From IMG/VR virus record IMGVR_UViG_3300028388_003891, positions 5,513 through 69,512 of that record: 64,000 bases of DNA; one strand, given 5' to 3'. The notes under the pieces were generated by a model that saw only the letters and a list, made by a program, of their open reading frames with translations, did not search any database and had not been told where the DNA came from. The position numbers and the translations under genes are program-made. This document shows, piece after piece, positions 4,476 through 57,099 of this stretch. Positions within the stretch are counted from its first letter, which is position 1, and each line of letters starts with the position of its first letter. This DNA comes from a virus (lineage: Duplodnaviria > Heunggongvirae > Uroviricota > Caudoviricetes).

Positions 4476-5483
4476 ATGTCCAACAAACTTGATCCTAAGG
4501 GTCTAGCATTTGCCATTGTTCTGATTAAAGAGCAAATCGCCAAGCTGTCAACAAAGTTTGATAGTCGCCTTGAAGAAGTAACTTTGACGCCTGGCCCTAA
4601 AGGGGAAAGAGGCGAACGAGGCCCCCGTGGTGAACAAGGACTGCAGGGTGAACGAGGTGCACGTGGTCGTCGTGGCGAAAAGGGCGACCAAGGACCCCAA
4701 GGGTTACAGGGGTTGCCTGGCAGTAAAGGAGACAGCGGCGAGCAAGGCCCTAAAGGCGAGCAAGGCCCTAAAGGCCCTAAAGGCGAGCAAGGCCCTCAAG
4801 GCCCTAAAGGCCCTAAAGGCGACAAAGGGGATCAAGGACCACAAGGCCCTAAAGGCCCTAAAGGCGAGCAAGGTGACCGTGGTCTAAAAGGAACTAGTGG
4901 CGACCAAGGCCCTAAAGGCGACAAAGGTGACCGAGGACCACATGGCCCTAAGGGCGACAAAGGTGACCGAGGACCACAAGGCCCTAAAGGCGACAAAGGA
5001 GATCAAGGACCGCCCGGCGAAACACCTGATATCACTGAGTTCATGTCCAAAGCTCAGGGACAGATCACGGCGTGGGAATCAAAGGCTAATAGAGCTCTAG
5101 CAACGTCCACGGCTGGCGGTGGTTCGTTTAAACTACTCGATAACAGCGACGTTGTTCGCAAGCAACTAAGCGAAGTTACTGACAAAGCAATCCTGATATA
5201 TGACGTAAATAAGGGTAAATTTGTAGTTAGTGACATTGAGGAAATTATACTTTCTCTTGGTCTTGGAGCCACACAGGTGCAGTACACACGTCTAATCGAC
5301 GCCGATGGCAATGACACATATATCGGCGAAGCAGTCCCCGGCAGTGATCCTAGTGCTGCAGTATGGCGCATCAAACGGGTGACAGAAGATCCTGTTACCG
5401 AAGACATTACCATTTTATGGGCTGATGGTTCTGCTGAGTTCACTTTCATCTGGGATGACCGACTGTCGTTCAATTATTCATAA
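4476..5483 (+). CDS. Collagen-like triple-helix repeat protein with a non-collagenous C-terminal domain
   Basis: About 55 consecutive Gly-X-Y triplets ([15 protein letters not shown]...) encoded by tandem nucleotide repeats between about 4560 and 5020. Followed by a globular C-terminal domain. Confidence 0.8.
4737..5010 (+). repeat. Tandem 9/18-nt coding repeats (ggccctaaaggcgagcaa-type) of the collagen-like region
   Basis: Direct nucleotide repeats visible in the sequence. They are coding ([12 protein letters not shown] units), not a CRISPR array. Confidence 0.8.
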
Positions 5484-5528
5484 ATACACCATAACTACAA
5501 AGCTAGTCGGCAACGGAGATAATAAAAA

Positions 5529-16164: not shown

Positions 16165-17607
16165 TCATGCAACCGCATAACGATCGCTCATGATTGTGTC
16201 AAGCATTACAGAATGCGGTGTCAACGTGCCTCCTAGCAACCCTTTAACGACTGCAGGACTTGCACCGCTGACGAGTGCTGCTCCGCTTTCATGCATCGTC
16301 ACAGGAATGTTATTGCCACGATCACACACATTCCACCATACAAGCTGAGGAACCTCGTATCCAGCTTTGCTGAACATCTCACGAGCCATTTCCTGTGCGG
16401 TAAAGTTAGTGCCTCGCCGTTGCACAAAGGGATGATCAAACTGCATATCGCTGATCACCAACAGATGCGTTGGCATGTCCTCTTGCGACAGATTAGCACG
16501 CTTTGCTGCAGTCAGTACTGCCTTAAATGTTTTCTGCAAATCGGTGTTCGCACCCCAGCCTGCAGATTCAACACTCTGCCAGCGCTGTTTCAGCGTTTTG
16601 CCTTTGATTACTTGCATTTGCGGACGCTCACTAAACGTAATGAACTGATCCTTAAAGATCGAAGTATTACGCTCGGCAAGGTACATTGCCAGAGACGTCG
16701 ACACGTCCATCGCTGTAACCGTTCCCGACCCCAGCGTTTGATTCATCGAGCACGACACGTCACAAACAACCATAAATCGAGCGTTGCTGTCGCCAATGTA
16801 ATCAGGCAGCGCTTTCCACTGTGCATCAGCCACTTGTGCATCACCGAGACGCAGTGATTTAACGATGTCGTATGGAAACACAGCACTTGCATTGACCTTG
16901 ACATCAGCATCCCCACGAGACAACTTTGCGCGGTACGAAGCATAGCCATCAGGATCGTGGCGGTAGAACGCTGCCTGGTAACGGGCTGCCGCAACCGACG
17001 GCACATGGCTGTAGGTGATCTGCGACCATTCATTGGCACACATACGCTGCTCGACAGTGTCGGACAGCGGCACAATCAATCTGCGCCACGCTTTTTCGTT
17101 GCGAACACCTGCTGCCTTAATAAGCGGCCGGGCCCCTTTCTTCACTTTACGTGGGGCCCACTTAGCCGCAAGACCATTGCCTTGCTCGATTGCTGTAACC
17201 CACAGCTCTGCTGCAAATGACTCGAGTGGTGTACCGAACGCCGCTTGAAGGTCGTCCCAGCGGCCAACTTCCGGAAGACGCTGTATTAGCGTCTGCGCTA
17301 CCTCTCGTAGCTCGGGGTTTGGTGCACCAGCAAGACCATTGATAATAAGGCGAACCGTTTCACGCTCGCCAGCACCACCACGAATGTCGCGGCCCCACAG
17401 CACAATACGCATTGCGTATTCTGGATTTTCCTGATACGCAGCCATAAACTGCCCAATCAGGTCTTTTCCCCGAGAAGAGCCTATCTGAAAAAACAGATCA
17501 ACGCAATCATTTAGCGAGCTGTGGAACGCTTCCATCCCATTCTCGGTGATCGTTGTGTTGGTCATTTGTGCCGCAAGTTTGCTTACTTGTGTCATAATAA
17601 TCTCCAA
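16165..17607 (-). CDS. vWA-domain protein (tentatively DUF2828; possibly Ro60/TROVE-related)
   Basis: 480 aa. MIDAS-type motif 'VVCDVSCSM' (DxSxS), a helical N-terminal domain and 'GMEAFHSS...DLFFQIG' N-terminus. Minus-strand terminator hairpin at about 16130-16160. Confidence 0.5.
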   Translation of the reverse strand: MEIIMTQVSKLAAQMTNTTITENGMEAFHSSLNDCVDLFFQIGSSRGKDLIGQFMAAYQENPEYAMRIVLWGRDIRGGAGERETVRLIINGLAGAPNPELREVAQTLIQRLPEVGRWDDLQAAFGTPLESFAAELWVTAIEQGNGLAAKWAPRKVKKGARPLIKAAGVRNEKAWRRLIVPLSDTVEQRMCANEWSQITYSHVPSVAAARYQAAFYRHDPDGYASYRAKLSRGDADVKVNASAVFPYDIVKSLRLGDAQVADAQWKALPDYIGDSNARFMVVCDVSCSMNQTLGSGTVTAMDVSTSLAMYLAERNTSIFKDQFITFSERPQMQVIKGKTLKQRWQSVESAGWGANTDLQKTFKAVLTAAKRANLSQEDMPTHLLVISDMQFDHPFVQRRGTNFTAQEMAREMFSKAGYEVPQLVWWNVCDRGNNIPVTMHESGAALVSGASPAVVKGLLGGTLTPHSVMLDTIMSDRYAVA

Positions 17608-27356: not shown

Positions 27357-27770
27357 ATGAATCAGCAAATGGGTACTGTTACATCGTACATTACTGTACG
27401 AACCGACTTTGAGGGGTATCACCGCTACAAGGGAGCAAGTGAAATCGACCCTCGACTAGAGTTTCTCGAGCATCGTCATCGACACAAGTTTTATGTCACA
27501 GTGACAATTTCCGTCACCCACGACGATCGCGAGCTTGAGTTTTTCTTGGTTAAGTGGGACCTGCGGGATTTCATCGACAGTCGCTTGATTAAGGGTCGCC
27601 AAAATGACACGATGATTGAGTCATGTGAAATGATTGCTAGATGCATCCTTGACGAGCATTTAATTCCAGCATACGGAACTGACAGAAGTTACTTCATCGT
27701 CGTGTCGGAAGATGGTGAAAACGATGGCGCCATCCACTACATTCCCCCTGCCACGGAGGTCCAACCATGA
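27357..27770 (+). CDS. Second T-fold (PTPS/QueD-like) protein
   Basis: His-rich 'FEGYHRYKG...LEHRHRHKFYVTV' resembles PTPS/QueD zinc-site blocks. No QueF signature. Confidence 0.35.
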   Translation: MNQQMGTVTSYITVRTDFEGYHRYKGASEIDPRLEFLEHRHRHKFYVTVTISVTHDDRELEFFLVKWDLRDFIDSRLIKGRQNDTMIESCEMIARCILDEHLIPAYGTDRSYFIVVSEDGENDGAIHYIPPATEVQP

Positions 27771-28618
27771 GCCTCAGAAAGATTGATTTCTGTTACATTA
27801 TGCCAACGGCCCTACTGCCTAAATTCGGAAATCTTAGCAAGTCGCATCTTGTGTTAGCCCATCTTGTTGAGCAGGATGATACATACACCGAGTATTTCGC
27901 ACAGAGCGAAAAGTTCAAGATAATGGATAACAGCGCGTTTGAGATGTTTAAACAAGGGCGCGAGATGTATCCCTCTGACAAGCTGATCGAGATGGCGACT
28001 AGGTGCAAAGCTGATATGATCGTTATGTCAGACTATCCTAATGAACCTGCTAAAAAGACGATCGATGCTGCGAAGCGCCTTGCGTTCGAGTACAAAGAAG
28101 CTGGGTTTGAAACCTTCTTTGTGCCACAGAGCGTAGCTGGCGACAAGGATGGATACCTCAATTCAATTAGGTGGGGCCTTGAGTACTCTGACTTGATTGA
28201 TCGTATTGGACTGTCTATCCTCGGCGCTCCCAACGCGTATGGCGTGCTTCGCAACCCATTGCAGCGTACACTAGCTCGGTGGCGCGTACTTCACGAGCTA
28301 GATGTAGCAGGGGATCTAGTGTCACGCAACAAGCAGTTTCATTGTCTTGGTATGCTCGATGGACCCAACGAAATTTTGTTGCTCAAAGATTATGTCGCTA
28401 AGATTGCTTCGTGGGACACCTCGGCGCCTGTGTGGGCTGGATTGCATGGCATTACGTTTGATGAAACGCCGACTGGCTTAAAAGAAGGCAAGTTCGAGCG
28501 CGAGGTCGATTTTGACTACGGTAAGAATAGCCCAATCACCGACACCCAGCGACAATGTATCATGACCAACTGCAAGATGATACAAAACAACCTAAAGCAT
28601 GTGGAATACACACCATGA
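27767..28618 (+). CDS. Possible DpdA/TGT-like transglycosylase (tentative) in the 7-deazaguanine cluster
   Basis: 283 aa. Call rests on genomic context (FolE-QueD-QueE neighbours). No diagnostic motifs confirmed. Confidence 0.3.
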   Translation: MSLRKIDFCYIMPTALLPKFGNLSKSHLVLAHLVEQDDTYTEYFAQSEKFKIMDNSAFEMFKQGREMYPSDKLIEMATRCKADMIVMSDYPNEPAKKTIDAAKRLAFEYKEAGFETFFVPQSVAGDKDGYLNSIRWGLEYSDLIDRIGLSILGAPNAYGVLRNPLQRTLARWRVLHELDVAGDLVSRNKQFHCLGMLDGPNEILLLKDYVAKIASWDTSAPVWAGLHGITFDETPTGLKEGKFEREVDFDYGKNSPITDTQRQCIMTNCKMIQNNLKHVEYTP

Positions 28619-28947
28619 CCGACCAAAAAGAATTACGAGTTAAACGTGGAGAGTTAAAGATCATTGACGAGCTTCGTGATTATGTAATCGCGACGTACAA
28701 CCAGCACTATCGTACAGAAAATGAAGATGGTGATGAGATCCAAGTACTGGATATTTGGGAAGCACTCGATATGGATATTGCGGCGATGCATTCTAACATC
28801 GTCAAGTATGCCTTTCGTTACGGTCGCAAAAACGGGTACAATCGAAAAGATCTTTTCAAAATACTCCATTACACCGTGCTGTTGATCCACTACAGCGAAC
28901 AACGTGGGTTATTCACTGTAGTGGATCCACAGCTGGAGAGTGTGTAA
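28617..28947 (+). CDS. Hypothetical protein
   Basis: 110 aa. Start at the ATGA overlap with the upstream stop. Confidence 0.3.
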
Positions 28948-29468
28948 TGAGTCTGCGTAATATAGCCCTTTCCACCAATCCAGCAGAGTTGTCTCATACT
29001 GAAGAGGATGATGTTCAGCCAAATGCTGTCGACATACGTCTCGATAAAGTGTGGCAAATTTCCAACGAGACGTTTACCCTCAGTGATAGTCACAAGGGGC
29101 ATCGTGGGTCCGAAGAGCTGTCGTTTACCCGTCATTTCCCCGACCATGAAGGCGAATGGATCGATCTATATCCAGGCAGCTATGAGTTTACCGCTAGAGG
29201 TACTGTGCTAGTTCCGCCTGGGTTCGCTGGGTGGGTAGTTACTCGAAGCACACTGAACCGTAATGGTGTCTTCATAACATCCGGCCTGTACGATAGCGGC
29301 TATCATGGAGTAATGGCCGGCGTAATACATGTATCTTGCGGTCCCTTTCTGGTTCAGCGAGGAACACGCATTGGTCAGTTTATACTTGTCGACGCTGAAA
29401 CATCTCATCAGTACGATGGCGATTACGGTTTGGGTAAAAAGCACGATGATAAGTACACGACTGCGTAG
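28947..29468 (+). CDS. dCTP deaminase / dUTPase-fold protein
   Basis: 'QPNAVDIRLD', 'VPPGFAGWVVTRSTLNRNGV', 'SGLYDSGYHG' and 'RIGQFIL' blocks characteristic of the Dcd/Dut beta-barrel. Its TAG stop (29466-29468) lies inside the following tRNA. Confidence 0.6.
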   Translation: MSLRNIALSTNPAELSHTEEDDVQPNAVDIRLDKVWQISNETFTLSDSHKGHRGSEELSFTRHFPDHEGEWIDLYPGSYEFTARGTVLVPPGFAGWVVTRSTLNRNGVFITSGLYDSGYHGVMAGVIHVSCGPFLVQRGTRIGQFILVDAETSHQYDGDYGLGKKHDDKYTTA

Positions 29469-29535
29469 CACAATCTGGTAGTGCGCTGAACTCTAAATTC
29501 ATGAGATAACGGTTCAAATCCGTTCGCAGTCACCA
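29459..29535 (+). tRNA. tRNA with anticodon CUA (amber-suppressor-like), CCA encoded
   Basis: Acceptor GACUGCG/CGCAGUC, D arm GCAC-AAUCUGGUA-GUGC, anticodon arm CUGAA-CUCUAAA-UUCAU (C27.U43 mismatch), T arm AACGG-UUCAAAU-CCGUU, A73-CCA. Confidence 0.5.
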
Positions 29536-29576
29536 TATATACACCGCAATGACTAATGACTTTAAGGGAAACAAAC

Positions 29577-30173
29577 ATGATTGATTTAGTATGTGTTCTG
29601 GACCGTTCAGGTTCAATGTATGCTGACGCTGCAAAGGTGATCAGCTCGTTCAATGAGTTTATCGCGATGCAGCGCGGACGGATGCTAACACGCCCCGACC
29701 TTATGCGTGTTACGCTAGTGCTGTTCGATAATCAATACGAGGTGGTGTACAAAAGCATTCCCATTGATGCTGTCCCCGAACTGACATCAGCTGTGTACAA
29801 CACACGAGGTATGACCGCACTCAATGATGCCGTTGGCAAGACGATTAACGAGCTACGTGACAACGAGAACGTCTTTATGTACATCGAGACCGACGGCCAC
29901 GAAAATAGTTCCAAAGAGTTTAATGGCGACCAAATCAAAACCATGATTAGGGATGCGGAACGCCGTGGATGGGAGTTTATGTTCACCGGTGCCGATTTAA
30001 CCAAACAACAAACACTCGACATGGCCAGCTCGTACGGGATCAAATCGTCGAACACCATCTCGATCAATAAAACGTCGGATGGGTACGCCACTCGCAACGC
30101 CCTGTTCTCTACTGCTGTATCTTCGTATGTGGACGATGTTACTAGCAAGTCGAGTTCTACAGAGACAATCTAA
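29577..30173 (+). CDS. vWA-domain protein
   Basis: N-terminal MIDAS 'CVLDRSGSM' (DxSxS). Rossmann-like alternating pattern. Confidence 0.6.
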   Translation: MIDLVCVLDRSGSMYADAAKVISSFNEFIAMQRGRMLTRPDLMRVTLVLFDNQYEVVYKSIPIDAVPELTSAVYNTRGMTALNDAVGKTINELRDNENVFMYIETDGHENSSKEFNGDQIKTMIRDAERRGWEFMFTGADLTKQQTLDMASSYGIKSSNTISINKTSDGYATRNALFSTAVSSYVDDVTSKSSSTETI

Positions 30174-30289
30174 AGTCGGAGACAAAAATGTCCACTGAAG
30201 GCATGTAGGTATTCAAACCTCCATAACAGTAACTCTTTTACGGCACACTAACATAACAATGTTTACTGTTTCAAAAGAGAGTTACTATT

Positions 30290-30799
30290 ATGAAAACCAA
30301 CCTAATCAAACTGAAAGTCAAGTCAAAGAGTCTTGCCGAAGAGGCTCGTATAATTCGCAAAGAGGAACGCAAGGCGCTTAATCGCTTTAACAACGTCCAT
30401 GCAACTAAAGAGCCAAACCGCGACTATTGGGAATGGACGACACAAGAGCAGCAGGCTTACAACGCTTACGCCTCATTGCACACACACCGCACAGATGACG
30501 TAAGACGTGAATCACGTGCAACCCATCTGGCGATAGCGTTCCTTAAAGGTAGAACATACCGGTCTGTAGAACGCAATTCTAAAGACGATTACGACAAACA
30601 GAGAGCCTTGCTGCGTGCAGCGAAGATTGCGTTCAAGTACATATGGAACGACCATCCTAGCTACCAGCTATTTAAACAGCAACATGCGAGGCAAATGCAA
30701 GCGGTGCCTCGTACGCCAAGAGAAGAGTACGCACGCAAAAATATCAGAGTAACTGCAAATTTACAATATGAGATCTTCCGGAAATGGTCGGAAGAATAA
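30290..30799 (+). CDS. Hypothetical basic/helical protein
   Basis: 169 aa with RBS AGAGTT...ATG. No family recognised. Confidence 0.3.
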   Translation: MKTNLIKLKVKSKSLAEEARIIRKEERKALNRFNNVHATKEPNRDYWEWTTQEQQAYNAYASLHTHRTDDVRRESRATHLAIAFLKGRTYRSVERNSKDDYDKQRALLRAAKIAFKYIWNDHPSYQLFKQQHARQMQAVPRTPREEYARKNIRVTANLQYEIFRKWSEE

Positions 30800-31089
30800 A
30801 TACGAGCAGTTGAACAACTACCCACCTCGATTTTAGACATTGGAACCAGAGTCCCAATGACGGACAAACCAGTCGCGGCACAGGCGATCAATATTGTTGT
30901 AGAACTGCGTGAAGCTCGAGATCATGAACTGAAACGATTGACTCGTCGCCAGTTGCAAAGTATCATTGATAAAGAAACTGCCCGACAAACACAGCGGAGG
31001 ACTACATCTGATGGCTATTGGCGAAGATCGTGATCCAATCTATGGAATAGTGTACGCATCTTGTACGCTAGTGATTGGCGGCCCGATTC

Positions 31090-31457
31090 TTGCATTTGCT
31101 GGTGGGGCGTTCCATTAACGAAATTCGATGAAGCACAACGAACGGTGCTAAGGACGGGGGTTCGATTCCCCCCACCTCCACCAAAAAGCATACTCTTCCC
31201 GCGAAAGCGGTGCGATGGAAGTCGTCATAATCAACCAAGGGAGTATGCTTTTTGATGGGGGTGCACTGGCTTCGACTTGGACTTAATAGCTTGTGTGGAG
31301 AATAGGTGCGGAAGCTACCTTAAACGCAACAAAGTAAAAAAGTGACGCAGCTAATGATGCTGTGTATGATGTGGCTCTAGCAGCCTGATCATACTGGGGA
31401 TTGACTATCCTTATTATCCAATAAGTCCGGGCAGGTTAAACCTGCCCGTTTTAGTTT
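31090..31457 (+). ncRNA. ssrA: Two-piece (circularly permuted) tmRNA gene: acceptor piece first, coding piece second
   Basis: Acceptor piece ends ...GGACGGGGGUUCGAUUCCCCC-CACCUCC-A-CCA at 31174. The coding piece starts at 31257 with GGGGGUG, which pairs with CACCUCC. The coding-piece head GGGGGUGCACUGGCUUCGAC resembles the tmRNA 5' head GGGGCUGAUUCUGGAUUCGAC. An in-frame tag ORF GCA GCU AAU GAU GCU GUG UAU GAU GUG GCU CUA GCA GCC UGA (31348-31388) encodes AANDAVYDVALAA. The 82-nt intervening segment forms a 13-bp hairpin. Terminator at 31427-31456. Confidence 0.75.
31427..31456 (+). terminator. Rho-independent terminator closing the tmRNA coding piece
   Basis: CCGGGCAGG-TTAAA-CCTGCCCG hairpin followed by a TTTTAGTTTT run. 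Confidence 0.65.
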
Positions 31458-31553
31458 TCTAATTGTAAACGGCCCCTTCTGTTGAATTACGTTTGATAGA
31501 TACGTGACTGTATGGTTGCTGAAAAACAGCAATCCTTTGAAATGGAGATCATT

Positions 31554-32504
31554 ATGAAACAAGTGTTTCGCTCAATTGCGATAGCTACCGCAATCGCATT
31601 AACCGCCGCGTGTGGTGCCAAGGTGGAAGTGCCGCCTGCTCACGTTGGCAAAGTCCTTACCCGAAACGGCTTTGCGCCGGAAACTCTCGCCCCAAGCAAA
31701 TTCCGCCTCGAGCCGTGCATAGCGTACTGTGACAAGCTAGTTTTGCTGCAGGCTAATGACGCGCCATTCCATGAGAAAATGGAAGTGTTCATGCCTGAAG
31801 ACAAACTGAATCTTAGTGTTGAGGTTCGTGGCACGATGTCGATCATGTCGAATAACAGCCGTACAATCGATTCACTATATGATCGCATTACTGCTGTGCC
31901 AACGGACGACAATGATGTCAATGTCATAACCGCAGAATTGATATATCGTACATACGGGCAACCGACCCTACGTGGTGTTGTGCGCAATAAGATTGCGGAA
32001 TACACAATTGCTGATGTGATGGCCAACCGTGAAGCGCTTGCTCAGACTATTCACGACGCCATTGTTGATAGGATGGAAGCTACCAGCACTCCATTAATGT
32101 TTTCGCGCTTTGAGCTTGCTGACATCCAGCCGCCTCTAGTGATTATCGAGGCACAAGTTACCGCGAAAAAACGTGAGATCGACATCATGACGGCCAACGC
32201 CGACGCCGAGGTCAAAATGGTGGAAGCAGAGCGCGACCTCGAGATAGCTCAGAAACGACGTCTTGTAGAGCGTGAAAAAGCAGAGGCAATTGCTGAGCAA
32301 AACCAGATCGCGGCCGCTTCAATTACCCCACAGCTACTCGAATATCGACGTCTCGAAGTACAAGAGCGCGTGTTTACACAACTTGCTAACGGTACCAACG
32401 AAGGTCTAATGATCGTGCCGATTGACACTAACAGCATCAACTCGACCACTGAGGGTGCTGTGTTTGGACGTGTCGCTGGCAAGCAAATCGCTAGCGCTAA
32501 GTAA
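31554..32504 (+). CDS. SPFH/band-7 (prohibitin/stomatin-like) domain lipoprotein
   Basis: Lipobox 'ALTAAC' after a signal peptide, an SPFH-like core and a C-terminal charged coiled coil (EIDIMTANADAEVKMVEAERDLEIAQKRRLVEREKAEAIAEQ). Start taken at the Met with a GGAG RBS. Confidence 0.55.
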   Translation: MKQVFRSIAIATAIALTAACGAKVEVPPAHVGKVLTRNGFAPETLAPSKFRLEPCIAYCDKLVLLQANDAPFHEKMEVFMPEDKLNLSVEVRGTMSIMSNNSRTIDSLYDRITAVPTDDNDVNVITAELIYRTYGQPTLRGVVRNKIAEYTIADVMANREALAQTIHDAIVDRMEATSTPLMFSRFELADIQPPLVIIEAQVTAKKREIDIMTANADAEVKMVEAERDLEIAQKRRLVEREKAEAIAEQNQIAAASITPQLLEYRRLEVQERVFTQLANGTNEGLMIVPIDTNSINSTTEGAVFGRVAGKQIASAK

Positions 32505-32515
32505 CGGAGGCAGCT

Positions 32516-32920
32516 ATGAACTGGGACCTTAATTTTGGCAACATCGCGTTTGGACTGATACCTTGGGTATCGCTGGTAGCGTCAGCTACGATCGCTCACT
32601 TGATGTTTGTAGGTTTTTGCAAGCACACAAAATTCGTTGACGATGAATCGTTTTTGGTTTATCACAAATTGATAACGAAAATAGCACCTGTGTTTTTTAT
32701 TGGCACACTTGCGATTGCAGTGCTGCTGTCTGTTCAAACGTACGGTCCCAGAGCAACCCTTAATGCAGTACCATACAACTACAATCCCGAGCCAGCAGAG
32801 ATAGTTCCATCCGAGAACTCGATCACAGGTCGCAGAGATGATGCACCAGATTGGCGTGGTAGGTTTGAAGACAGGCTTGCTGAGCCACCTGTAACAATCA
32901 AAAAGCAAGACGACCAGTAG
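32516..32920 (+). CDS. Small two-TM membrane protein adjacent to the SPFH gene (NfeD-like partner?)
   Basis: Two hydrophobic segments then a soluble tail. Immediately downstream of the SPFH protein. Confidence 0.35.
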   Translation: MNWDLNFGNIAFGLIPWVSLVASATIAHLMFVGFCKHTKFVDDESFLVYHKLITKIAPVFFIGTLAIAVLLSVQTYGPRATLNAVPYNYNPEPAEIVPSENSITGRRDDAPDWRGRFEDRLAEPPVTIKKQDDQ

Positions 32921-32928
32921 GATAAAGC

Positions 32929-33600
32929 ATGCAACTAACCGATCAGGATATTAAAATTCTAACTAACTTTGCATCGATCCAGCCCAATATTGTATTGGGG
33001 CCTGGATCGTCTGTTTTAACGCTTGCAGAAGGTCACCATATAGCAGCGGCAGCTGAACTGAGCCAAGAGATACCTCGTGAGTCGCCTATATACGACCTCG
33101 GGGAATTCCTGCAAGCTGTGTCGCTGCTCGAAGAGCCTTCATTTCGATTCACCGACAAAGCTATAGTGATGAGTGGTGGAGGTAGTCAGGTTCGATATTT
33201 CCTCACAGACAAAGAGATGCTGACATTTCCTCCAAGGGAACCACTAGTTGCGCCAACAGACGGTGTGTTGATCCACTTGTCTGATGAGACTCTGACGGCA
33301 ATCAGAAAAGCATGCTCAGCCTTGAAACATGATGTGATGACGATCGCCAGTCAGGACCAACGTGCTGTTATAACAGTTAGCGATCCAACGATCGATACTA
33401 GCAATGCGTGGGCCACACAGGTAGATATCGAGCGGAACAGCTTTAGTTCTTTTTCAGCGGTGTTCTCCGTTGCAAACATGAAACTGATTCGTGGAAGCTA
33501 TGACGTTCAAATAACACCACACATCTACAAATTCACTAATACCCAAGAGCCGGTGCGCTATTACATGGCACCACATCGACTGTCCACCTTTACGGAGTAA
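32929..33600 (+). CDS. Sliding clamp gp45
   Basis: 'LTNFASIQPNIVLGPGSSVLTLA' parallels T4 'LKNFATINSGIMLKSGQFIMTRA'. 'IYDLGEFLQAVSLLEE' parallels 'IYDLNGFLGILSLVND'. 'ANMKLIRGSYDV' parallels 'ANMKMQPGNYKL'. Confidence 0.8.
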   Translation: MQLTDQDIKILTNFASIQPNIVLGPGSSVLTLAEGHHIAAAAELSQEIPRESPIYDLGEFLQAVSLLEEPSFRFTDKAIVMSGGGSQVRYFLTDKEMLTFPPREPLVAPTDGVLIHLSDETLTAIRKACSALKHDVMTIASQDQRAVITVSDPTIDTSNAWATQVDIERNSFSSFSAVFSVANMKLIRGSYDVQITPHIYKFTNTQEPVRYYMAPHRLSTFTE

Positions 33601-36378: not shown

Positions 36379-38913
36379 TTGGAGAATCATATGTATTGTG
36401 ACGTAACACGTATCAAAGACGATATTTGCGTACGTGGGTACACCCCCAGCGGTGAACGATACCAACGCCGCGTTCCATTTAAGCCAACGATGTACCTCCC
36501 ATCGTCCGATCCCACAGATTGGCGCACATTAGGTGGTGTACACGTAGCTCCTGTTATATGCGACTCAATGAGCGACGCAAGTCGTATGGTCAAAGAGTAT
36601 GAAGGCGTTGCACGCCTTGCAGTGTTTGGAATGGACAACTACGTCACGCAGTTCGTTGAGCAAGCATTCCCCGGTGATTTTAAATATGATATAACAAGCG
36701 TCAATGTTGTGTCGTTTGACATTGAGGTATACAGTCCCGATGGTTTTCCACACGCAAGTGAAGCTCAATATCCCGTTGTCTCCATCGCAGCTCATAGCTC
36801 TAAATTTGATCAGTATATTTTATGGGCGACAAAGGACTTCACGCCAACACAAGAGACTCCAACCAACCTGACTTTTGTTCGCTGTGATGATGAACACGAT
36901 TTGCTCAGCAAGTTTCTGAGCTGGTGGGAAGGCAGTGATACAAGTCCCGATGTTGTGACAGGGTGGAATGTCAAGCTGTTTGATATTCCGTACCTCGTTA
37001 ACCGCATACGACAAACAATGGGGGAAGCGCCAGCAAGACGTCTATCGCCATGGGGCTTTATTCGCGAACACGCAGTACAAATTGGCAATCGCTCCAACCA
37101 AGCGTTTGTATTAGCTGGCATTCAGATTCTCGATTACATCGAATTGTACCGCAAGTTTGCAGTGCTAACACTAGGCGTTCCCGAGTCGTACAAGCTCGAC
37201 CACATTGCGTCCCTCGTTCTCGGCCGTAAAAAGTTGTCATACGACGAGCATCGATCTCTGCACTCTCTATATGATAAAGATCCCAATCGCTTCTTCGATT
37301 ACAACATTCGCGACACGGAACTGATCGTTGAAATGGACCGTAAGCTCCAGTTGATCACGTTGGCTATAACAATCGCCTACAAAGCAGGGGCTCAATATAC
37401 AGACGCGTTCGGAACTACGGCTGTTTGGGATGCTTTAATATACAGGTCTCTCAATCAGCGCGGCATCGTCGTTCCCCCTAAGATAGTAGGAGCAAAACAG
37501 AATCTTGATGGCGCGTATGTTAAGACACCACAGTTAGGGCGACACAAGTGGGTCGCATCATTTGACCTCAATAGCCTGTACCCAATGACGATGATTCAGT
37601 ACAACATGTCTCCTGAAACAATCGTCGATACGTACAGCGATTTAACGCCCGAAAAGATTCTCGAGACGGATGGCCAAGCAGCTATTGATAGTTCGGTACC
37701 TAATTGCACCACCGCTGCAAACGGGATCCACTACACCACAAATCAGAAGGGGATCATTCCAGAGTTGATCGATAAGCTGTACAGCGATCGATCTCAGGCT
37801 AAGAAGGCAAAGATTGAACTAGACAAAAAGGTTCAACGAGCTCGTAATCCTGAAACAAAAGCTAAATTGGAAAAAGAGCGTGATCAGTTGGACAGCGCGC
37901 AGATGGCATTTAAGATTTTGATGAACAGCTGTTACGGAGCTCACGGCAGTCCGTACTTCCGCTATTTTGACATGCGAACAGCCAACGCAATTACTTCTTG
38001 TGGAAGACTGACGATTCGCTGGGCCGAGAAGGCTATCAACGAGCTACTGAACAAGATCCTTAAAACAGACAACGTCGACTATGTGATTGCAGCTGACACG
38101 GACTCGCTGTATATAAACATGGGTCCTCTTGTCGATATGATGGGCATCGGTGATCGTCCGGAAGACGAAGTTGTCACTATCATTGATCAAATATGCAACG
38201 ACAAGTTTGAACCGCACCTCGACCAAGCGTACGTTAAACTTGGAGAGGTGATGAGTGCATTTTCTCTGCGAATGAAGATGAAGCGCGAAGTGATTGCAAG
38301 TGGTGGAATATGGGTGGCTAAAAAGAGGTACACTCTTTTGGTGCATGATGATGAAGGAGTTCGATACGAAACACCGAAGCTCAAGATCATGGGCATTGAG
38401 GCTGTCAAATCGAGCACACCACAAGTGTGTCGCGACAAACTCAAAGAGGTGTTTCGTTTGCTGGTCAAAGGCAAGTTCGACGAAGCCATGGAGTTCTGTG
38501 AACAGTTTCGTGAGGATTTTAGGCAGCTAGAGCCACATGAGGTCGCCTCGCCTCGTTCTGCGAACAATATAAGCAAGTGGCAGGATTCACAAACGATATA
38601 CGGTAAAGGAACGCCGATACACATCAAAGGATCACTGCTATACAACAATTTCATCGAACAGGTTGATGAGACAGGTAATCAGTTTCCTCGTATTGGTGAT
38701 GGTGAAAAGATTAAGTTTATACCTCTGTTAAAGCCAAATCCAATTCGCGATACAGTGATATCCTTTCCAGACTATCTGCCTGAGGAGTTGAATCTTCACA
38801 AGTACCTTGACTACAATAGCCAATTCGAAAAGACCTTTATGTCCGTCGTCGATCACATGATCGAAGCGGCTGGTTGGTCTCGTCATCCCACCCTCGATGC
38901 TTTTTTTACATGA
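36379..38913 (+). CDS. DNA polymerase, family B (gp43)
   Basis: Exo I 'FDIE', motif A 'DLNSLYPM', KKRY 'VAKKRYTL', motif C 'AADTDSLYI'. 844 aa. Confidence 0.9.
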   Translation: MENHMYCDVTRIKDDICVRGYTPSGERYQRRVPFKPTMYLPSSDPTDWRTLGGVHVAPVICDSMSDASRMVKEYEGVARLAVFGMDNYVTQFVEQAFPGDFKYDITSVNVVSFDIEVYSPDGFPHASEAQYPVVSIAAHSSKFDQYILWATKDFTPTQETPTNLTFVRCDDEHDLLSKFLSWWEGSDTSPDVVTGWNVKLFDIPYLVNRIRQTMGEAPARRLSPWGFIREHAVQIGNRSNQAFVLAGIQILDYIELYRKFAVLTLGVPESYKLDHIASLVLGRKKLSYDEHRSLHSLYDKDPNRFFDYNIRDTELIVEMDRKLQLITLAITIAYKAGAQYTDAFGTTAVWDALIYRSLNQRGIVVPPKIVGAKQNLDGAYVKTPQLGRHKWVASFDLNSLYPMTMIQYNMSPETIVDTYSDLTPEKILETDGQAAIDSSVPNCTTAANGIHYTTNQKGIIPELIDKLYSDRSQAKKAKIELDKKVQRARNPETKAKLEKERDQLDSAQMAFKILMNSCYGAHGSPYFRYFDMRTANAITSCGRLTIRWAEKAINELLNKILKTDNVDYVIAADTDSLYINMGPLVDMMGIGDRPEDEVVTIIDQICNDKFEPHLDQAYVKLGEVMSAFSLRMKMKREVIASGGIWVAKKRYTLLVHDDEGVRYETPKLKIMGIEAVKSSTPQVCRDKLKEVFRLLVKGKFDEAMEFCEQFREDFRQLEPHEVASPRSANNISKWQDSQTIYGKGTPIHIKGSLLYNNFIEQVDETGNQFPRIGDGEKIKFIPLLKPNPIRDTVISFPDYLPEELNLHKYLDYNSQFEKTFMSVVDHMIEAAGWSRHPTLDAFFT

Positions 38914-39854
38914 TTGAACTGACCGTTTTCGCTTCACAGTACGACAACAGGACAAATCGCCGTGTAAAATTCGACGATTGGGGCTCGTTTGTGTCAACGC
39001 TAAAAGCGTCATCGCGATGTCGCTTCGCTTCAAAAAAAGCCGCGGAGCTTATATCGCCGGCTATATACAAACCTAACACGACCAGAGCTATCAACAACGT
39101 TGAAAAGTGGGCTGGATGGCTGGCATTGGACATCGATAGTATGGACATAACTTCCAGCACGATGCACATCGCTTTTGAGCAATTTAATTCATATCAGTAC
39201 GTGTGCTACAGCACAGCAAGCTCCAGTCATGAACAGCCGAAGTTTCGCTTAGTGCTTCCGTTAAGCCGAGACGCTAACGGCCCTACTGAAATCCAACGAC
39301 TGTGGTACGCTACTAACCGAGAGCTAGGAGACGTCGCAGACCCACAAACTAAAGACGTTACCCGAATGTTTTACGTGCCGGGCAATTACGCTTCAGCTGA
39401 ATACCAATTCTTTATCGACAATCGCCACGGGCAGGTACTTGATGTTGATGAGCTACTAGCCAAATGGCCGTATCAGCCCCCGAAAGATCATACATCGGTT
39501 TATTCGGCGTTGCCAGAATATTTGCAGCAAGCTGTGAGAGAATATCGTCAGAATAGAGCGAGCAACATTGATGCGACATGGACAGACTACACCGATTGTC
39601 CGTTCGTTCCGCAATCATTAATTGAACAATATAAGAACATTTCCGATGGCGGCTGGTACCGCATGTTATATCGAATCATGGTAGCCACCGCTATTAACGC
39701 CATAGAAGCAGACTACCCAATTACTGAGGAGCAAATTGAGCAAATAGCTCGCGACATTGATCGCGATAACGGGTTATGGTACAAAAAAAGGCCATTCAAA
39801 AGAGAGGCTGCGAACGCGTTAGCATACGCGTATCAACATGCCATGATAGGATAG
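38910..39854 (+). CDS. Hypothetical protein with DxD motif (possible primase-polymerase-like); start at internal Met
   Basis: 'WLALDIDSMD' acidic motif. Otherwise unassigned. Overlaps the polymerase stop. Confidence 0.3.
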   Translation: MIELTVFASQYDNRTNRRVKFDDWGSFVSTLKASSRCRFASKKAAELISPAIYKPNTTRAINNVEKWAGWLALDIDSMDITSSTMHIAFEQFNSYQYVCYSTASSSHEQPKFRLVLPLSRDANGPTEIQRLWYATNRELGDVADPQTKDVTRMFYVPGNYASAEYQFFIDNRHGQVLDVDELLAKWPYQPPKDHTSVYSALPEYLQQAVREYRQNRASNIDATWTDYTDCPFVPQSLIEQYKNISDGGWYRMLYRIMVATAINAIEADYPITEEQIEQIARDIDRDNGLWYKKRPFKREAANALAYAYQHAMIG

Positions 39855-39863
39855 GAGAGATAT

Positions 39864-40916
39864 ATGTCGATAATGGATCGGCTAAAGAAAAACACAAAAC
39901 TCAAACACACTAGTGTAATGAGCGAAAGCACTATGTTTGGTAAGCGTGACATGGTGCCCACAGATGTACCAATGCTCAACGTTGCTTTATCAGGCGATGT
40001 CAACGGCGGGTTGACATCCGGCGTCACAATTGTGGCTGGACCAAGTCGCCATTTTAAAACAGCATACAGTCTTCTAATGGCTGCTGCGTACCTTAAAGCC
40101 AAACCACAGGCTGTCTTGTTGTTCTACGATAGTGAGTTTGGCTCGCCTCAAGCGTATTTTGAGACGTGGAACATCGACACTAGCCGTGTCCTCCACACAC
40201 CAATTACGAACGTTGAAGAACTGAAGCACGACCTTGTCAATCAACTACAGCAAATTGAACAGGGTGATGATGTCATAATCGTGATAGACTCGATTGGAAA
40301 TTTGGCGTCGATGAAAGAAGTGGAAGATGCTGTCGACGGAAAACAAGTGGCAGACATGACACGTGCGAAAGCGATGAAGAGTCTTTTTCGTATGATCACG
40401 CCAATGGTCAACCTCAAAGACATTCCTTTAATTGCTATCGCTCACACCTATAAAACAATGGAGATCTATTCCAAGGACGTTGTGAGCGGTGGAACGGGAT
40501 TGATGTATAGCGCTGACACAGTGTGGATTGTTGGACGTCGACAAAACAAAAACGGCACTGAGGTAGAAGGGTATGATTTCATCATTAATGTCGAAAAATC
40601 GCGATTTGTTCGCGAAAAATCTAAGATTCCTATTACGGTGTCTTGGGATGGTGGTATCGATCGCTATAGTGGTGTGGTGGACCTTGCTTGTGCCGGTGGG
40701 TTTATTGCTTGCCCTAGTAGGGGGTGGTTTAGCCGTATTAATCTCGATACGGGAGAAGTTAGTGAAGCTAAGTGCCGCGCCAAAGACATTGACGAACAGT
40801 GGATAACCGAGATTCTTGAGAGTCCAAAATTCCAGCAATATGTTGCCAATTTGTATCAAATTGGCAAGTATAGTGCAAATCCCATTGATTTTGAGGAGGC
40901 GCCAGGCGATGAATAA
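39864..40916 (+). CDS. uvsX: UvsX RecA-like recombinase
   Basis: Walker A 'VAGPSRHFKTAYSL'. Extensive colinearity with T4 UvsX ('IDSIGNLASMKEVEDA...DMTRAKAMKSLFRMITP', 'GGTGLMYSADTVWIVGRRQ'). Confidence 0.9.
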   Translation: MSIMDRLKKNTKLKHTSVMSESTMFGKRDMVPTDVPMLNVALSGDVNGGLTSGVTIVAGPSRHFKTAYSLLMAAAYLKAKPQAVLLFYDSEFGSPQAYFETWNIDTSRVLHTPITNVEELKHDLVNQLQQIEQGDDVIIVIDSIGNLASMKEVEDAVDGKQVADMTRAKAMKSLFRMITPMVNLKDIPLIAIAHTYKTMEIYSKDVVSGGTGLMYSADTVWIVGRRQNKNGTEVEGYDFIINVEKSRFVREKSKIPITVSWDGGIDRYSGVVDLACAGGFIACPSRGWFSRINLDTGEVSEAKCRAKDIDEQWITEILESPKFQQYVANLYQIGKYSANPIDFEEAPGDE

Positions 40917-50275: not shown

Positions 50276-50361
50276 CGCGGGATATACAAGCGGTCAACGT
50301 GATAGGGCTCATAACCCTATACCTTAGTGTTTCGTGGGTTCGAATCCCACTCCCGCAACCA
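50276..50361 (+). tRNA. tRNA-fMet-like (anticodon CAU), initiator features, unusual 14-nt variable region
   Basis: C1.A72 mismatch (CGCGGGA/UCCCGCA), anticodon stem with three G-C pairs (UAGGG-CUCAUAA-CCCUA), T arm GUGGG-UUCGAAU-CCCAC, A73-CCA. Confidence 0.55.
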
Positions 50362-50991: not shown

Positions 50992-51045
50992 ACTGCCCTG
51001 ATGAGTCTTACAGGAGACGAAACGCGCTGATAGCGCGTCGGCAGA
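50992..51045 (+). ncRNA. Hammerhead ribozyme 2 (type I); cleaves between 51039 and 51040, exactly at the tRNA-Tyr 5' end
   Basis: AACUGCC-CUGAUGA-GUCU[UACAGG]AGAC-GAAA-CGCGC[UGAUA]GCGCG-UC^GGCAGAG. Stem I is formed by the upstream CUGCC and the tRNA 5' acceptor strand GGCAG. Confidence 0.75.
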
Positions 51046-51121
51046 GTACACCCGTAACTGGTAGCGGCCCGCACTGTAACTGCGCATAACGTTGGGGGTT
51101 CGAATCCCTCCTCTGCCACCA
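51040..51121 (+). tRNA. tRNA (anticodon GUA, Tyr-type) with short variable region
   Basis: Acceptor GGCAGAG/CUCUGCC-A-CCA, anticodon arm (C)CGCA-CUGUAAC-UGCG(C), T arm GGGGG-UUCGAAU-CCCUC. D arm poorly paired. Confidence 0.55.
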
Positions 51122-51970: not shown

Positions 51971-52048
51971 GCGCCTGTAGCCCAATCAGGTAGAGGCAGC
52001 GGCTTTAAACCCCGTTCAGTGTGGGTTCGATCCCCTCCAGGCGCACCA
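51971..52048 (+). tRNA. tRNA with Leu anticodon UAA but class-I architecture (5-nt variable loop)
   Basis: Acceptor GCGCCUG/CAGGCGC, D stem GCC/GGC, anticodon arm GCGG(C)-UUUAAAC-(C)CCGU, T arm GUGGG-UUCGAUC-CCCUC, A73-CCA. Confidence 0.5.
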
Positions 52049-52082: not shown

Positions 52083-52301
52083 ATGAGTCTTTTGGAGGAT
52101 AAAACAATGGGTGAACGAACAATTCCTGCTCCAACAGAGCATCACTTCAGCTTTGCGACGGCAGTGGTCGATAATATGGTTCGCAACTGTGGAATCACAA
52201 GCTCCGGCGAAGACATCGATAAACTTAAAGACGCGATGGTTTCGTGCATTGCCCACCGTGACGCAGAGATCCTGTGGCTGCGCAAACTGGTGCATCCGTG
52301 A
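52083..52301 (+). CDS. Hypothetical protein
   Basis: 72 aa with RBS GGAGGA. Confidence 0.35.
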   Translation: MSLLEDKTMGERTIPAPTEHHFSFATAVVDNMVRNCGITSSGEDIDKLKDAMVSCIAHRDAEILWLRKLVHP

Positions 52302-52603
52302 TGTTGTACACTCCAGATAGATGGGTGTTGCTGGAAATCGAGCCGTACAAGTTGTACAAAGTGCTGGCGGGGTGGAATGGTGGTTATCTTTCGGCGGACG
52401 AATGGCGGATCAACTCCGGCATTAAAAGTCTGACCGATGAAGGCCAATATTTCACAGCAACAGGACACAGCGGCAGTGAATACCGTTTGTACAAGGATGC
52501 AGAGGGGTTCAATAAGATCAGCGCAGATGTGCTGTACAACCTCCAGAATGCTTATCCCCATATCGTCACTGTTTCTGCTGAACAATATTTTACGCGGGTG
52601 TAG
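52302..52603 (+). CDS. Hypothetical protein (start at the Met following the upstream stop)
   Basis: 100 aa. Ends with a TAG inside tRNA-Gly. Confidence 0.35.
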
Positions 52604-52669
52604 CTCAGTTGGTAGAGCATCTGGTTGCCAATCAGAAGGCCGTGGGATCGTGACCCATCACCCGCTCCA
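52594..52669 (+). tRNA. tRNA-Gly (GCC) with non-canonical T loop AUCGUGA
   Basis: Acceptor GCGGGUG/CACCCGC, D arm GCUC-AGUUGGUA-GAGC, anticodon arm UCUGG-UUGCCAA-UCAGA, U73-CCA. Overlaps the TAG stop of the upstream ORF. Confidence 0.65.
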
Positions 52670-53101: not shown

Positions 53102-53470
53102 TTGCATCAAGGATGCTGCAAAGGCGTTGATCGCGAATGCTACCTAATGGCAGCAGACAATCCAGACTACGACATAACGATTTACTCGTACCCACCAATT
53201 AATGATCACTATGCGATCAAGTGCCTCGGTCATGTCAATTACAAGCCACAGCCGTTCCTTGTACGCGATCGTGCTCTGGTAGATGCGGCGGATATTCTGC
53301 TATCGATGCCACTTACTGATTACGAGACATTTCGCAGTGGTACATGGTACACTACACGCTATGCTCTGCAGCAGGACAAGCCTGTCGTACTGATTCAACC
53401 TAACGGCACTAGTGTGCCTGCTGATGAAATTGAGAGATACTTACTACCTGGAAAATGGGGTGAAAGGTAA
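53102..53470 (+). CDS. Hypothetical protein (nucleoside 2-deoxyribosyltransferase-like fold?)
   Basis: 'ALVDAADILLSMP...TWYTTRYALQQDKPVVLI'. Weak call. Confidence 0.25.
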   Translation: MHQGCCKGVDRECYLMAADNPDYDITIYSYPPINDHYAIKCLGHVNYKPQPFLVRDRALVDAADILLSMPLTDYETFRSGTWYTTRYALQQDKPVVLIQPNGTSVPADEIERYLLPGKWGER

Positions 53471-54435
53471 TGGAATTCATCAAATACAGCTCGATTGAGA
53501 ATCACTACCGTGAGAAGGTTGTCGACTGGTATCGTGAAAATGGATTAGAAAACGTCGGATGGATCTTGACGGAGAAGATCCATGGCGCTAACTTTTCTTT
53601 CTGGTGCAACAGCAGCGAAGTCAAGGTCGCATCTCGTAACCAATGGGTCGACAGCACATTCTATAGCTGTCAGGACATCATCGACGCGTACACGCCCGTT
53701 GTGCTAGAGCTCGCTACTTTCTTCCCCAACAGCACTGTAGCTGTGTATGGGGAGCTGTACGGACCCGGTATTCAGAAGGGGGTCAATTACGGCGACAAAA
53801 AAGATTTCGTTGCCTTCGACATTCGAGTTGACGGATACTTCCTAGATCGTAATAAAGTACATGTGTACATCGCTGGTGCAAACCAGCTGACATTACAAAA
53901 GCACGGTCAGAGGTCCACCTTGATGGACGTTGTCCCTATTGTTGGCTCGACAGTGTCACTAACACAAGTGCTTGAGTTTGATAACGAGTTTGTATCTGTG
54001 CTTGGCCGTCTCAATGGTGTCGACGACGATGCCAACCTTGCTGAGGGATTCATTGCAACGCCAGTCGGCAAAGCGTACCAACGCATTGGCAGCGACCGTG
54101 TGATCCTCAAATCGAAAGGTGAAAAGTGGACAGAGAAAAGCAAGAAGGTAAAGACGCCTCGTGCTCCTGTTACTGAGCACCCACTGACATCAACGGTTGA
54201 GCAGTATGTCAACACCAACCGTGTCGATGCTGTCACAAGTAAGATGGGCCCGTTGACTCCAAAGGACTTTGGTCGGATCATTAGGGCTGTTTGTGATGAT
54301 GTCATTGATGACATGGTGAAGGACGGTGATGTTCGTAGCTGCTGGCGCGATGACGAAGAGACGAAAGACCTTGGCAAGGTTGTTAACAAAGTGGTAGTGC
54401 CTTTCCTCAAGAAAGAGCTGCTACCGACGTTGTAA
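53470..54435 (+). CDS. RNA ligase, Rnl2 family
   Basis: Nucleotidyltransferase motif I 'TEKIHGANF' (compare T4 Rnl2 'EKIHGTNF'). 321 aa. Embedded in the tRNA/ribozyme array. Confidence 0.65.
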   Translation: MEFIKYSSIENHYREKVVDWYRENGLENVGWILTEKIHGANFSFWCNSSEVKVASRNQWVDSTFYSCQDIIDAYTPVVLELATFFPNSTVAVYGELYGPGIQKGVNYGDKKDFVAFDIRVDGYFLDRNKVHVYIAGANQLTLQKHGQRSTLMDVVPIVGSTVSLTQVLEFDNEFVSVLGRLNGVDDDANLAEGFIATPVGKAYQRIGSDRVILKSKGEKWTEKSKKVKTPRAPVTEHPLTSTVEQYVNTNRVDAVTSKMGPLTPKDFGRIIRAVCDDVIDDMVKDGDVRSCWRDDEETKDLGKVVNKVVVPFLKKELLPTL

Positions 54436-55268: not shown

Positions 55269-55345
55269 GCGCCCCTACGCAAATTGGCAAAGCGGCTGGC
55301 TTTAGAAGCCGGTGTTTCTCGGTTCGAGTCCGAGGGGGCGTACCA
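55269..55345 (+). tRNA. tRNA with Leu anticodon UAG, class-I architecture
   Basis: Acceptor GCGCCCC/GGGGCGU (G1.U72), anticodon arm CUGGC-UUUAGAA-GCCGG, 5-nt variable loop, T arm CUCGG-UUCGAGU-CCGAG, A73-CCA. Confidence 0.5.
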
Positions 55346-55351
55346 AACAAT

Positions 55352-55428
55352 GGGTCGTTAGCTTAATTGAGTAAAGCAGCAGGCTTTTAACCTGCCAGAT
55401 CTGAGTTCGAGTCTCAGGCGGCCTACCA
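55352..55428 (+). tRNA. tRNA-Lys (UUU)
   Basis: D arm GCUU-AAUUGAGUA-AAGC, anticodon arm GCAGG-CUUUUAA-CCUGC, T arm CUGAG-UUCGAGU-CUCAG, A73-CCA. Confidence 0.7.
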
Positions 55429-56664: not shown

Positions 56665-56740
56665 GGGTCGTTAGCTTAACTGGCAAAGCTCCGGTCTCCA
56701 AAACCGGCAGATCGCGGTTCGAAGCCGTGGCGGCCCGCCA
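56665..56740 (+). tRNA. tRNA-Trp (CCA)
   Basis: Anticodon arm CCGGU-CUCCAAA-ACCGG, D arm GCUU-AACUGGCA-AAGC, T arm CGCGG-UUCGAAG-CCGUG, G73-CCA. Confidence 0.7.
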
Positions 56741-57022: not shown

Positions 57023-57099
57023 GCCGCAGTGACCCAATTGGCAGAGGTGCCAGTTTCAAAAGCTGGATGTTGTCGGTTCGACTCCGACCTGCGGTACCA
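57023..57099 (+). tRNA. tRNA with Leu anticodon CAA, class-I architecture
   Basis: Acceptor GCCGCAG/CUGCGGU, anticodon arm CCAGU-UUCAAAA-GCUGG, 5-nt variable loop, T arm GUCGG-UUCGACU-CCGAC, A73-CCA. Confidence 0.5.

Follow-up and report, generated by a model that had tools for sequence, protein, structure and literature searches.

The 64,000-nucleotide (64-kb) stretch of DNA considered here, hereafter the window, is part of a tailed-phage genome (positions 5,513 to 69,512 of IMG/VR record IMGVR_UViG_3300028388_003891), and on its + strand, at positions 29459 to 29535, it carries a transfer RNA (tRNA) gene with the anticodon CUA. Immediately upstream of this gene, tRNA(CUA), lies a gene for a protein of the dCTP-deaminase/dUTPase fold (DCD-like; 28947 to 29468, +; Pfam DCD 6e-16, a dUTPase match and PHROG dCTP deaminase), the last 10 nucleotides (nt) of which are the first 10 of the tRNA. 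Downstream, a vWA-domain gene (29556 to 30173, +) starts 20-41 nt past the tRNA 3' end, so that tRNA(CUA) is wedged inside a + strand operon. By every sequence criterion applied it is an amber-suppressor-type tRNA, and the window around it uses the standard genetic code. The reading favoured here, at a probability of roughly 0.55, is that of a genuine amber-suppressor-type tRNA, most likely of lysine type, which would serve a standard-code T4-like phage as an accessory general suppressor with no dedicated target.

The tRNA gene and the stop codon that it overlaps

ARAGORN calls a class I tRNA gene of 77 nt with the anticodon CTA, and the same sequence aligns over its full length with the Rfam model RF00005 at 65.8 bits (gathering score 29; E 4e-12 over the window), which places it fourth among the 29 Rfam tRNA matches in the window. 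Both programs agree with the first-pass annotation, made from the letters of the DNA, which had described a canonical tRNA with a C27·U43 mismatch and an encoded CCA. The stems have the 7, 4, 5 and 5 base pairs (bp) of a canonical elongator tRNA, the sole non-standard pair in the Rfam alignment being C27·U43, the first of the anticodon stem, and the conserved tertiary positions are all present (U8, A14, A15-U48, G18G19, U33, G53, U54U55C56, A58 and C61). The molecule begins and ends with G1-C72, A73 and the CCA at 29533-29535. ARAGORN attaches the label tRNA-Pyl, which reflects the anticodon alone and is excluded by the architecture: tRNA-Pyl has a small D-loop without G18G19, a 3-nt variable loop, a 6-bp anticodon stem and no T-psi-C motif, whereas tRNA(CUA) has a 4-bp D-stem closing a 9-nt D-loop that contains G18G19, a variable loop of 5 nt, an anticodon stem of five positions and the T-loop TTCAAAT.

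The anticodon itself, at 29493 to 29495 (+), is placed identically by ARAGORN, by the Rfam alignment and by direct reading of the sequence, in the 7-nt loop CUCUAAA with U33, a purine (A37) at position 37 and A38, and the earlier statement that CUA reads UAG therefore stands. The loop is identical to that of the Escherichia coli suppressor supF, and its A36A37A38 is the determinant for i6A37 formation by MiaA. The cloverleaf lies 1.5 kcal/mol above the minimum free energy (MFE) fold, in which the A/U-rich anticodon stem is exchanged for a 3-bp alternative. A different fold with a sense anticodon had been named in advance as something that would speak against suppression, and none was found; the MFE fold changes the anticodon stem and offers no such anticodon.

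The overlap with the DCD-like gene was also noted at first pass, where the TAG stop at 29466 to 29468 (+) was assigned to the 5' acceptor stem. The overlap holds and the assignment does not: read on the sequence, the TAG is U8-A9-G10 of the tRNA, corresponding to the 8-9 linker plus the opening base of the D-stem, while the two sense codons before it, ACT GCG, fall within the acceptor stem. TAG is found at tRNA positions 8-10 in 20 of 29 tRNAs of the window and in 165 of 322 phage tRNAs. The same arrangement occurs a second time in the window, where an open reading frame (ORF) of 109 amino acids (aa; 52274-52603, +) ends at the TAG formed by U8-A9-G10 of a tRNA-Gly(GCC) gene (52594-52669), and again in the T5-like Salmonella phage S113 (MH370366), where an annotated gene ends with the same geometry at positions 8-10 of a downstream tRNA-Asp. 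The S113 case involves a sense tRNA and so has no self-referential aspect, in contrast to the overlap with tRNA(CUA).

The stop codon is TAA in 57 of 80 homologues of the DCD-like gene, TGA in 22 and TAG in one, which argues that in the window the TAG was supplied by the tRNA. These homologues terminate 0-2 codons past a conserved ...HDKKY(T) motif, and the protein of the window ends in ...HDDKYTTA, its final residues and its stop coming from tRNA sequence. It would appear that the tRNA's own U8-A9-G10 took the place of the original stop of the DCD-like gene. Since U8-A9-G10 spells UAG in most tRNAs, the overlap is best read, on these comparisons, as an incidental by-product of dense packing, unlinked to the CUA anticodon. 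For annotation in general, a TAG stop that overlaps the 5' end of a tRNA will usually be just U8-A9-G10, without special meaning. Readthrough at this TAG would add six residues (HNLVVR) before an in-frame TGA at 29487 to 29489 (+), and cleavage by RNase P at 29459 would strip the stop codon from the DCD-like message.

Use of TAG across the window

A crude count of stops in 73 + strand ORFs gives 41 TAA, 23 TGA and 9 TAG, and with two small ORFs added at least 11 + strand ORFs end in TAG (ends at 8054, 11914, 29468, 32920, 33831, 39854, 43904, 48203, 52603, 60383 and 61011). The four that had been listed at first pass (8054, 29468, 52603 and 60383) are all among them. At least three of the genes that end in TAG, those for the DCD-like protein, the primase and a phrog_9155 protein, have homology support, and two of the TAG-ended ORFs (8054 and 11914) lie within the structural module. 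Because TAG is a genuine stop in these homology-supported genes, suppression cannot amount to complete recoding, in keeping with the original judgement that it would have to be partial or regulated.

No homology-supported + strand gene in the window contains an in-frame TAG, and re-reading TAG as a sense codon joins no gene fragments; the genes for the sheath, the portal, the major head protein, a UvsW-like helicase, a gp46-like protein and the DNA polymerase are all uninterrupted when read with the standard code. The first-pass annotation had held that an absence of TAG-interrupted genes would count against suppression, and within the 64 kb this absence is what was found, so that no suppression target is known. 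The window contains no dedicated readthrough or recoded target. A search of 30 of its ORFs for a release-factor (RF2) or aminoacyl-tRNA synthetase gene found none.

Nor do the TAG stops look adapted to suppression by closer backup stops. The median distance to the next stop is 10 codons after TAG, 12 after TAA and 9 after TGA, with no difference between the stop codons. For seven of the nine TAG stops measured, the next TAA or TGA lies 1-22 codons further on, which is how far readthrough would extend the protein. The base that follows TAG is C or G in nine of nine cases, a small sample in which the C at the DCD-like gene is C11 and is fixed by the tRNA. The only long ORF obtained with translation code 15 is a 701-codon fusion, by amber readthrough, of a TAG-ended primase-like gene (38874-39854, +) with UvsX (39864-40916, +), which follows in frame nine nucleotides downstream. 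This fusion was rejected as a target: the TAG lies within the Shine-Dalgarno region of UvsX, and the adjacency is not conserved in Phage C48C1, the closest sequenced relative, where two genes separate primase and UvsX. One in-frame neighbour among 11 TAG-ended ORFs is about what chance would give, and the adjacency is treated as such.

In phages that have reassigned TAG (code 15; crAss-like, Lak and others) the codon is read as glutamine, in-frame TAG is found in structural and lysis genes, TAG stops are depleted, GC content is low and an RF2 gene is sometimes present (10.1101/2021.08.26.457843; PMC9523058). The window resembles these genomes in that the CUA tRNA is encoded by the phage and the host presumably uses the standard code, and differs from them in having no in-frame TAG, ordinary use of TAG stops, a GC content of about 47% and a tRNA body of lysine type with A73. 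It is nevertheless possible, though it seems unlikely, that beyond the window there are one or a few TAG-containing genes, for lysis, tail-fibre or baseplate proteins for example, on which the suppressor acts, in an early or limited form of the recoding seen in gut phages, with an early suppressor gating late proteins. Such an arrangement would fit the model of Borges et al., in which the suppressor is acquired before recoding and standard-code relatives of recoded phages bear suppressors; it would also fit the position of tRNA(CUA) in a region of replication genes, which are usually switched on in the early or middle phase of infection, and the window is part of a larger genome in which such genes could lie. 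Against it, the several late structural genes within the window include none with an in-frame TAG, TAG stops show no depletion (9 of the 73 ORFs of the crude count and 11 altogether) and also end ORFs of the structural module, GC content is not at the low values associated with recoding, and the ORFs scanned include neither a release factor nor a synthetase.

Amino-acid identity and the surrounding island

The amino acid carried by tRNA(CUA), which had been called unclear at first pass, can now be narrowed, with modest confidence, to that of a lysine-type body on the combined grounds of A73, U35, BLAST and profile hidden Markov models (HMMs). Searched by BLAST against the phage collection, the 77-nt sequence matches best a tRNA-Lys(CTT) of a Streptomyces phage, 78% identical over positions 7-64 (E 4e-3), with which tRNA(CUA) has in common the D-arm, the anticodon-loop flanks and the T-loop. 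A comparison with 322 non-redundant phage tRNAs, the anticodon being masked, gives two Lys(CTT) as the nearest neighbours, and lysine accounts for 6 of the top 25 neighbours compared with 19 of the 322 overall. Isotype profile HMMs rank lysine first at 30.3 bits, ahead of Asn (25.7), Met (24.2), Trp (20.9), Gln (14.3), Leu (12.2) and Tyr (4.6), and the lysine score is still 28.8 bits when the sequence retrieved by BLAST is left out. A73 occurs in 16 of 19 lysine tRNAs of phages, in none of 7 for tryptophan and in 2 of 14 for glutamine, and it also matches tyrosine and leucine; together with U35 it gives tRNA(CUA) the discriminator and the central anticodon base of a lysine-type tRNA.

Among class I CUA tRNAs in E. 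coli, those with A73 tend to be charged by lysyl-tRNA synthetase (LysRS) and those with G73 by the glutamine enzyme (GlnRS), and LysRS tolerates A36, as in the ochre suppressors supG and supL derived from lysT. The elements recognised by E. coli GlnRS are G73, a weak 1-72 pair, G2-C71 and G3-C70. A glutamine-type body, comparable to supE, was considered and set aside, as tRNA(CUA) has A73, G1-C72, A2-U71 and C3-G70 and scores 14.3 bits with the glutamine profile against 30.3 with that for lysine. Descent from a leucine tRNA, a candidate because all four leucine tRNAs of the window are short, was likewise rejected: the 3-bp D-stem with G21-A22 of the leucine type is missing and the leucine profile gives 12.2 bits. 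The amino acid inserted at UAG would thus probably be lysine, at odds somewhat better than even, with glutamine or another amino acid making up the remainder, and a lysine-type identity would differ from the glutamine reported for TAG recoding in phages.

The tRNA belongs to a 3.5-kb island (29469 to 32928) that comprises tRNA(CUA), the vWA gene, a 169-aa ORF, a transfer-messenger RNA (tmRNA), a Band-7 gene (31512-32504) and a 134-aa ORF. Synteny by tblastn across 80 related loci places the island between two conserved landmarks, the DCD-like gene and a homologue of the ORF at 32929-33600, the latter probably a sliding clamp because clamp-loader genes follow it. In 45 of the 80 loci the order is a QueD-like gene, genes for a 283-aa and a 130-aa protein, the DCD-like gene, a gap of 0.9-2.9 kb and the homologue of ORF 32929-33600. 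In none of the 80 did tblastn find homologues of the vWA, 169-aa, Band-7 or 134-aa genes in the gap, and no tRNA or tmRNA lies within about 4 kb of the DCD-like gene in any of them. Since the related loci are without its tRNA, its tmRNA and its four protein genes, the stretch from 29469 to 32928 is lineage-specific on this comparison. The run upstream (27357-29468, +), with QueD/PTPS-like, 283-aa (of unknown family), 130-aa and DCD-like genes, is conserved in many related metagenomic phages and may represent a nucleotide or DNA-modification pathway.

The tmRNA (31091 to 31479, +) lies 1.6 kb downstream of tRNA(CUA). It is of the permuted, two-piece form and encodes the tag DAANDAVYDVALAA; it was detected by ARAGORN and scores 95.2 bits with the Rfam model tmRNA_permuted. 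It has its own promoter-like site (30938-30966) and a terminator-like hairpin (31428-31448). By comparison, no promoter-like site was found on the + strand from position 27.9 kb up to tRNA(CUA), which also has no terminator-like hairpin. The permuted form is typically that of alpha-proteobacteria, of some beta-proteobacteria and of cyanobacteria, and its presence here hints at the host.

Possible function and the phage that carries the gene

In the reading favoured here tRNA(CUA) would be co-transcribed with the DCD-like gene and released by RNase P and 3' trimming, its CCA being already encoded. A host synthetase, most likely LysRS, would then charge it, and the charged tRNA would compete with release factor RF1 at UAG, giving partial readthrough on phage and host messages alike. 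Such readthrough should be tolerated, as most of the extensions would be short (the 1-22 codons noted above), and the tmRNA of the same island could rescue ribosomes that run to the end of a message. The gene would in this respect act like the suppressors of other tRNA-rich phages that use the standard code.

Several points weigh against this reading. The visible 64 kb is part of the genome. The isotype classifiers on which the lysine assignment draws are weak, with a leave-one-out accuracy of 52-57% and 23 of 257 non-lysine tRNAs (9%) miscalled as lysine. The anticodon stem is also weak, consisting of C27·U43 and four pairs of which only one is G-C, and it is this stem that the MFE fold replaces. 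In the fetched flanks of 38 other viral loci with CUA tRNAs, a tmRNA was found in none. Lastly, no homologue of tRNA(CUA) was found in any collection searched. The exact sequence and its D-arm have no match in IMG/VR; a D-arm and T-loop pattern retrieved one irrelevant archaeal tRNA-Cys from 185,579 species genomes; and a loop-based pattern retrieved 14 loci from IMG/VR, none of them homologous to tRNA(CUA), and two from JGI metagenomes that belong to an unrelated phage, none of whose proteins resembles those of the window.

A singleton of this kind, with a mismatched and weak anticodon stem, separated from the main tRNA cluster by 20 kb and closely hemmed in by two coding genes, and with no target found, might instead be no suppressor at all. 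It could be a recent anticodon mutant of a sense tRNA (Lys CUU to CUA, for example) that is neutral, poorly charged or decaying, or it could be retained chiefly as an RNase P signal that separates the DCD-like and vWA messages. This is judged rather unlikely: the conserved tRNA positions, the CCA and the UAG-suited loop CUCUAAA are all intact in what is among the best-scoring tRNAs of the window, and CUA tRNAs are common in viral contigs, a single pattern search having returned 46 in 38 loci. Such independent recurrence argues for selection over accident.

The presence of a tmRNA in the same island raises the question of whether the two RNAs work together. In E. coli, according to Ueda (2002, as cited in PMC3985003), readthrough driven by suppressors feeds trans-translation by the SsrA system. 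Since suppressor readthrough loads that system in E. coli, a functional pairing is plausible by analogy, and the tmRNA is a possible partner of tRNA(CUA). Co-location thus suggests a link between readthrough and ribosome rescue, for which present support is anecdotal. A general linkage of tmRNAs with suppressors was rejected on the count of none in 38 given above. One unrelated metagenome contig, AP72_2010, which has no protein similarity to the window, carries a standard-form tmRNA (647-1002) and a CUA tRNA (5434-5508) 4.4 kb apart. At its strongest the idea would make the suppressor tRNA, the overlapped stop and the tmRNA one unit, with lysine inserted at UAG and perhaps an unseen TAG-containing late gene under its control: excision by RNase P would remove the last two sense codons and the stop of the DCD-like message, and the phage tmRNA would tag the product of the resulting non-stop mRNA for degradation. 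This is improbable, and if true it would constitute a non-gut, T4-like route from UAG to lysine in translational control, where the TAG recoding described in phages all involves glutamine.

It is highly improbable that the gene is a counter-defence device, in which a lysine-type body with an altered anticodon would act, alongside the phage RNA ligase, as a decoy for or an escape from host anticodon nucleases: nucleases that target tRNA-Lys exist, and the lysine-like body, an Rnl2-type RNA ligase encoded inside the tRNA cluster (53470-54435, +) and a Ro60-like vWA protein (DUF2828/DUF7788; 16165-17607, -) would suit the idea, but a CUA anticodon cannot restore AAA/AAG decoding, the known nucleases recognise the very anticodon loop that is altered in tRNA(CUA), a normal tRNA-Lys(UUU) is already encoded at 55352-55428 (+; ARAGORN), and no defence-related context was found.

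For the accessory suppressor favoured here the nearest precedent is the Xanthomonas jumbo phage XacN1, a standard-code phage with two CUA tRNAs, for which in-silico readthrough of 18 amber stops revealed no targets (PMC5852040). The two phages are alike in being rich in tRNAs, in the standard code, in their CUA tRNAs without an identified target and in a Band-7 gene near tRNAs. The differences are considerable: XacN1 is not T4-like, its CUA tRNAs lie inside a tRNA cluster in the terminal repeats whereas the copy in the window is isolated from its cluster, the tRNA bodies are unrelated (those of XacN1 are outside the top 25 neighbours of tRNA(CUA)), and the suppressor tRNAs of XacN1 are free of overlapping genes, with no annotated tmRNA in the 50 kb of that genome retrieved. 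The Band-7 protein next to the tRNAs is all that this stretch has of the RNA toolkit of the window.

The classical suppressors of E. coli (supF from tyrT, supE from glnV, and supG and supL from lysT) are single-base anticodon changes of sense tRNAs. They are laboratory mutants of cellular genes, whereas tRNA(CUA) occurs naturally in a phage and has no parent that can be identified in the window. Suppressor tRNAs in tRNA-rich, standard-code phages are thus already known from XacN1, and tRNA(CUA) adds a case that is mildly unusual in its probable non-glutamine identity and in sharing a lineage-specific island with a permuted tmRNA. If active, it would mean that natural amber suppressors are not confined to jumbo phages or to recoded phages of the gut but extend to environmental T4-like phages in which TAG is still a stop, and it would provide one more case from which to ask what such suppressors serve.

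The phage is T4-like by its structural genes (tail sheath, portal and major head protein) and by its replication genes (UvsW-like helicase, gp46-like and gp47-like proteins, clamp loader, DNA polymerase, primase, UvsX and a gp41-like helicase); a DNA ligase and the Rnl2-type RNA ligase are also encoded. Phage C48C1, of the Kyanoviridae, has a UvsX that is 61% identical. The window has no nucleotide-level match by megablast or blastn among 50,697 phage records, and apart from a self-match of 100% the nearest relative of its DCD-like protein among 5.8 billion proteins is at most 62% identical, which points to an isolated lineage with no close relative in the collections searched.

ARAGORN finds 30 RNA genes in the window. 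Besides tRNA(CUA) there are 29 tRNAs, 28 called by ARAGORN and a tRNA-Tyr(GTA) recognised only by Rfam; nearly all lie between 50 and 60.5 kb, and together they cover every amino acid except alanine. Origin of tRNA(CUA) by duplication of one of these was considered and rejected, the best identity being 52 of 77 positions. Compared with the phage collection, the main cluster gives only weak matches to T5-like tRNAs. Within it, tRNA-Lys(UUU) and tRNA-Trp(CCA) (56665-56740, +) have near-identical acceptor stems and 5' D-arms (GGGTCGTTAGCTTAA ... GGCGGCC), which suggests that one arose from the other by duplication with a switch of anticodon and identity. The four tRNA-Leu genes (51971-52048, 55269-55345, 57023-57099 and 59511-59588, all +) are 77-78 nt long; the long variable arm that bacterial tRNA-Leu has is missing from them, while the leucine-type D-arm and A73 are retained; short leucine tRNAs are likewise annotated in phage S113 and in Streptomyces phage CeilingFan. 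A tRNA(CAT) of 86 nt (50276-50361, +) has the initiator hallmarks of a C1·A72 mismatch and GGG/CCC in the anticodon stem together with an unusually long variable region, and the tRNA-Tyr(GTA) missed by ARAGORN (51040-51118, +; Rfam 40.4 bits) has a variable arm of medium length.

The RNA ligase, the Ro60-like protein, the tmRNA and the Band-7 gene resemble a toolkit for RNA repair and quality control, and CeilingFan has a comparable set, with a tmRNA, a Ro-like protein, a Band-7-like protein and an RNA ligase in common with the window. A fibre protein with collagen-like repeats (4476-5483, +), whose gene is flanked by that for the portal and by one of unknown family that encodes 599 aa, matches many PHROG tail-fibre families.

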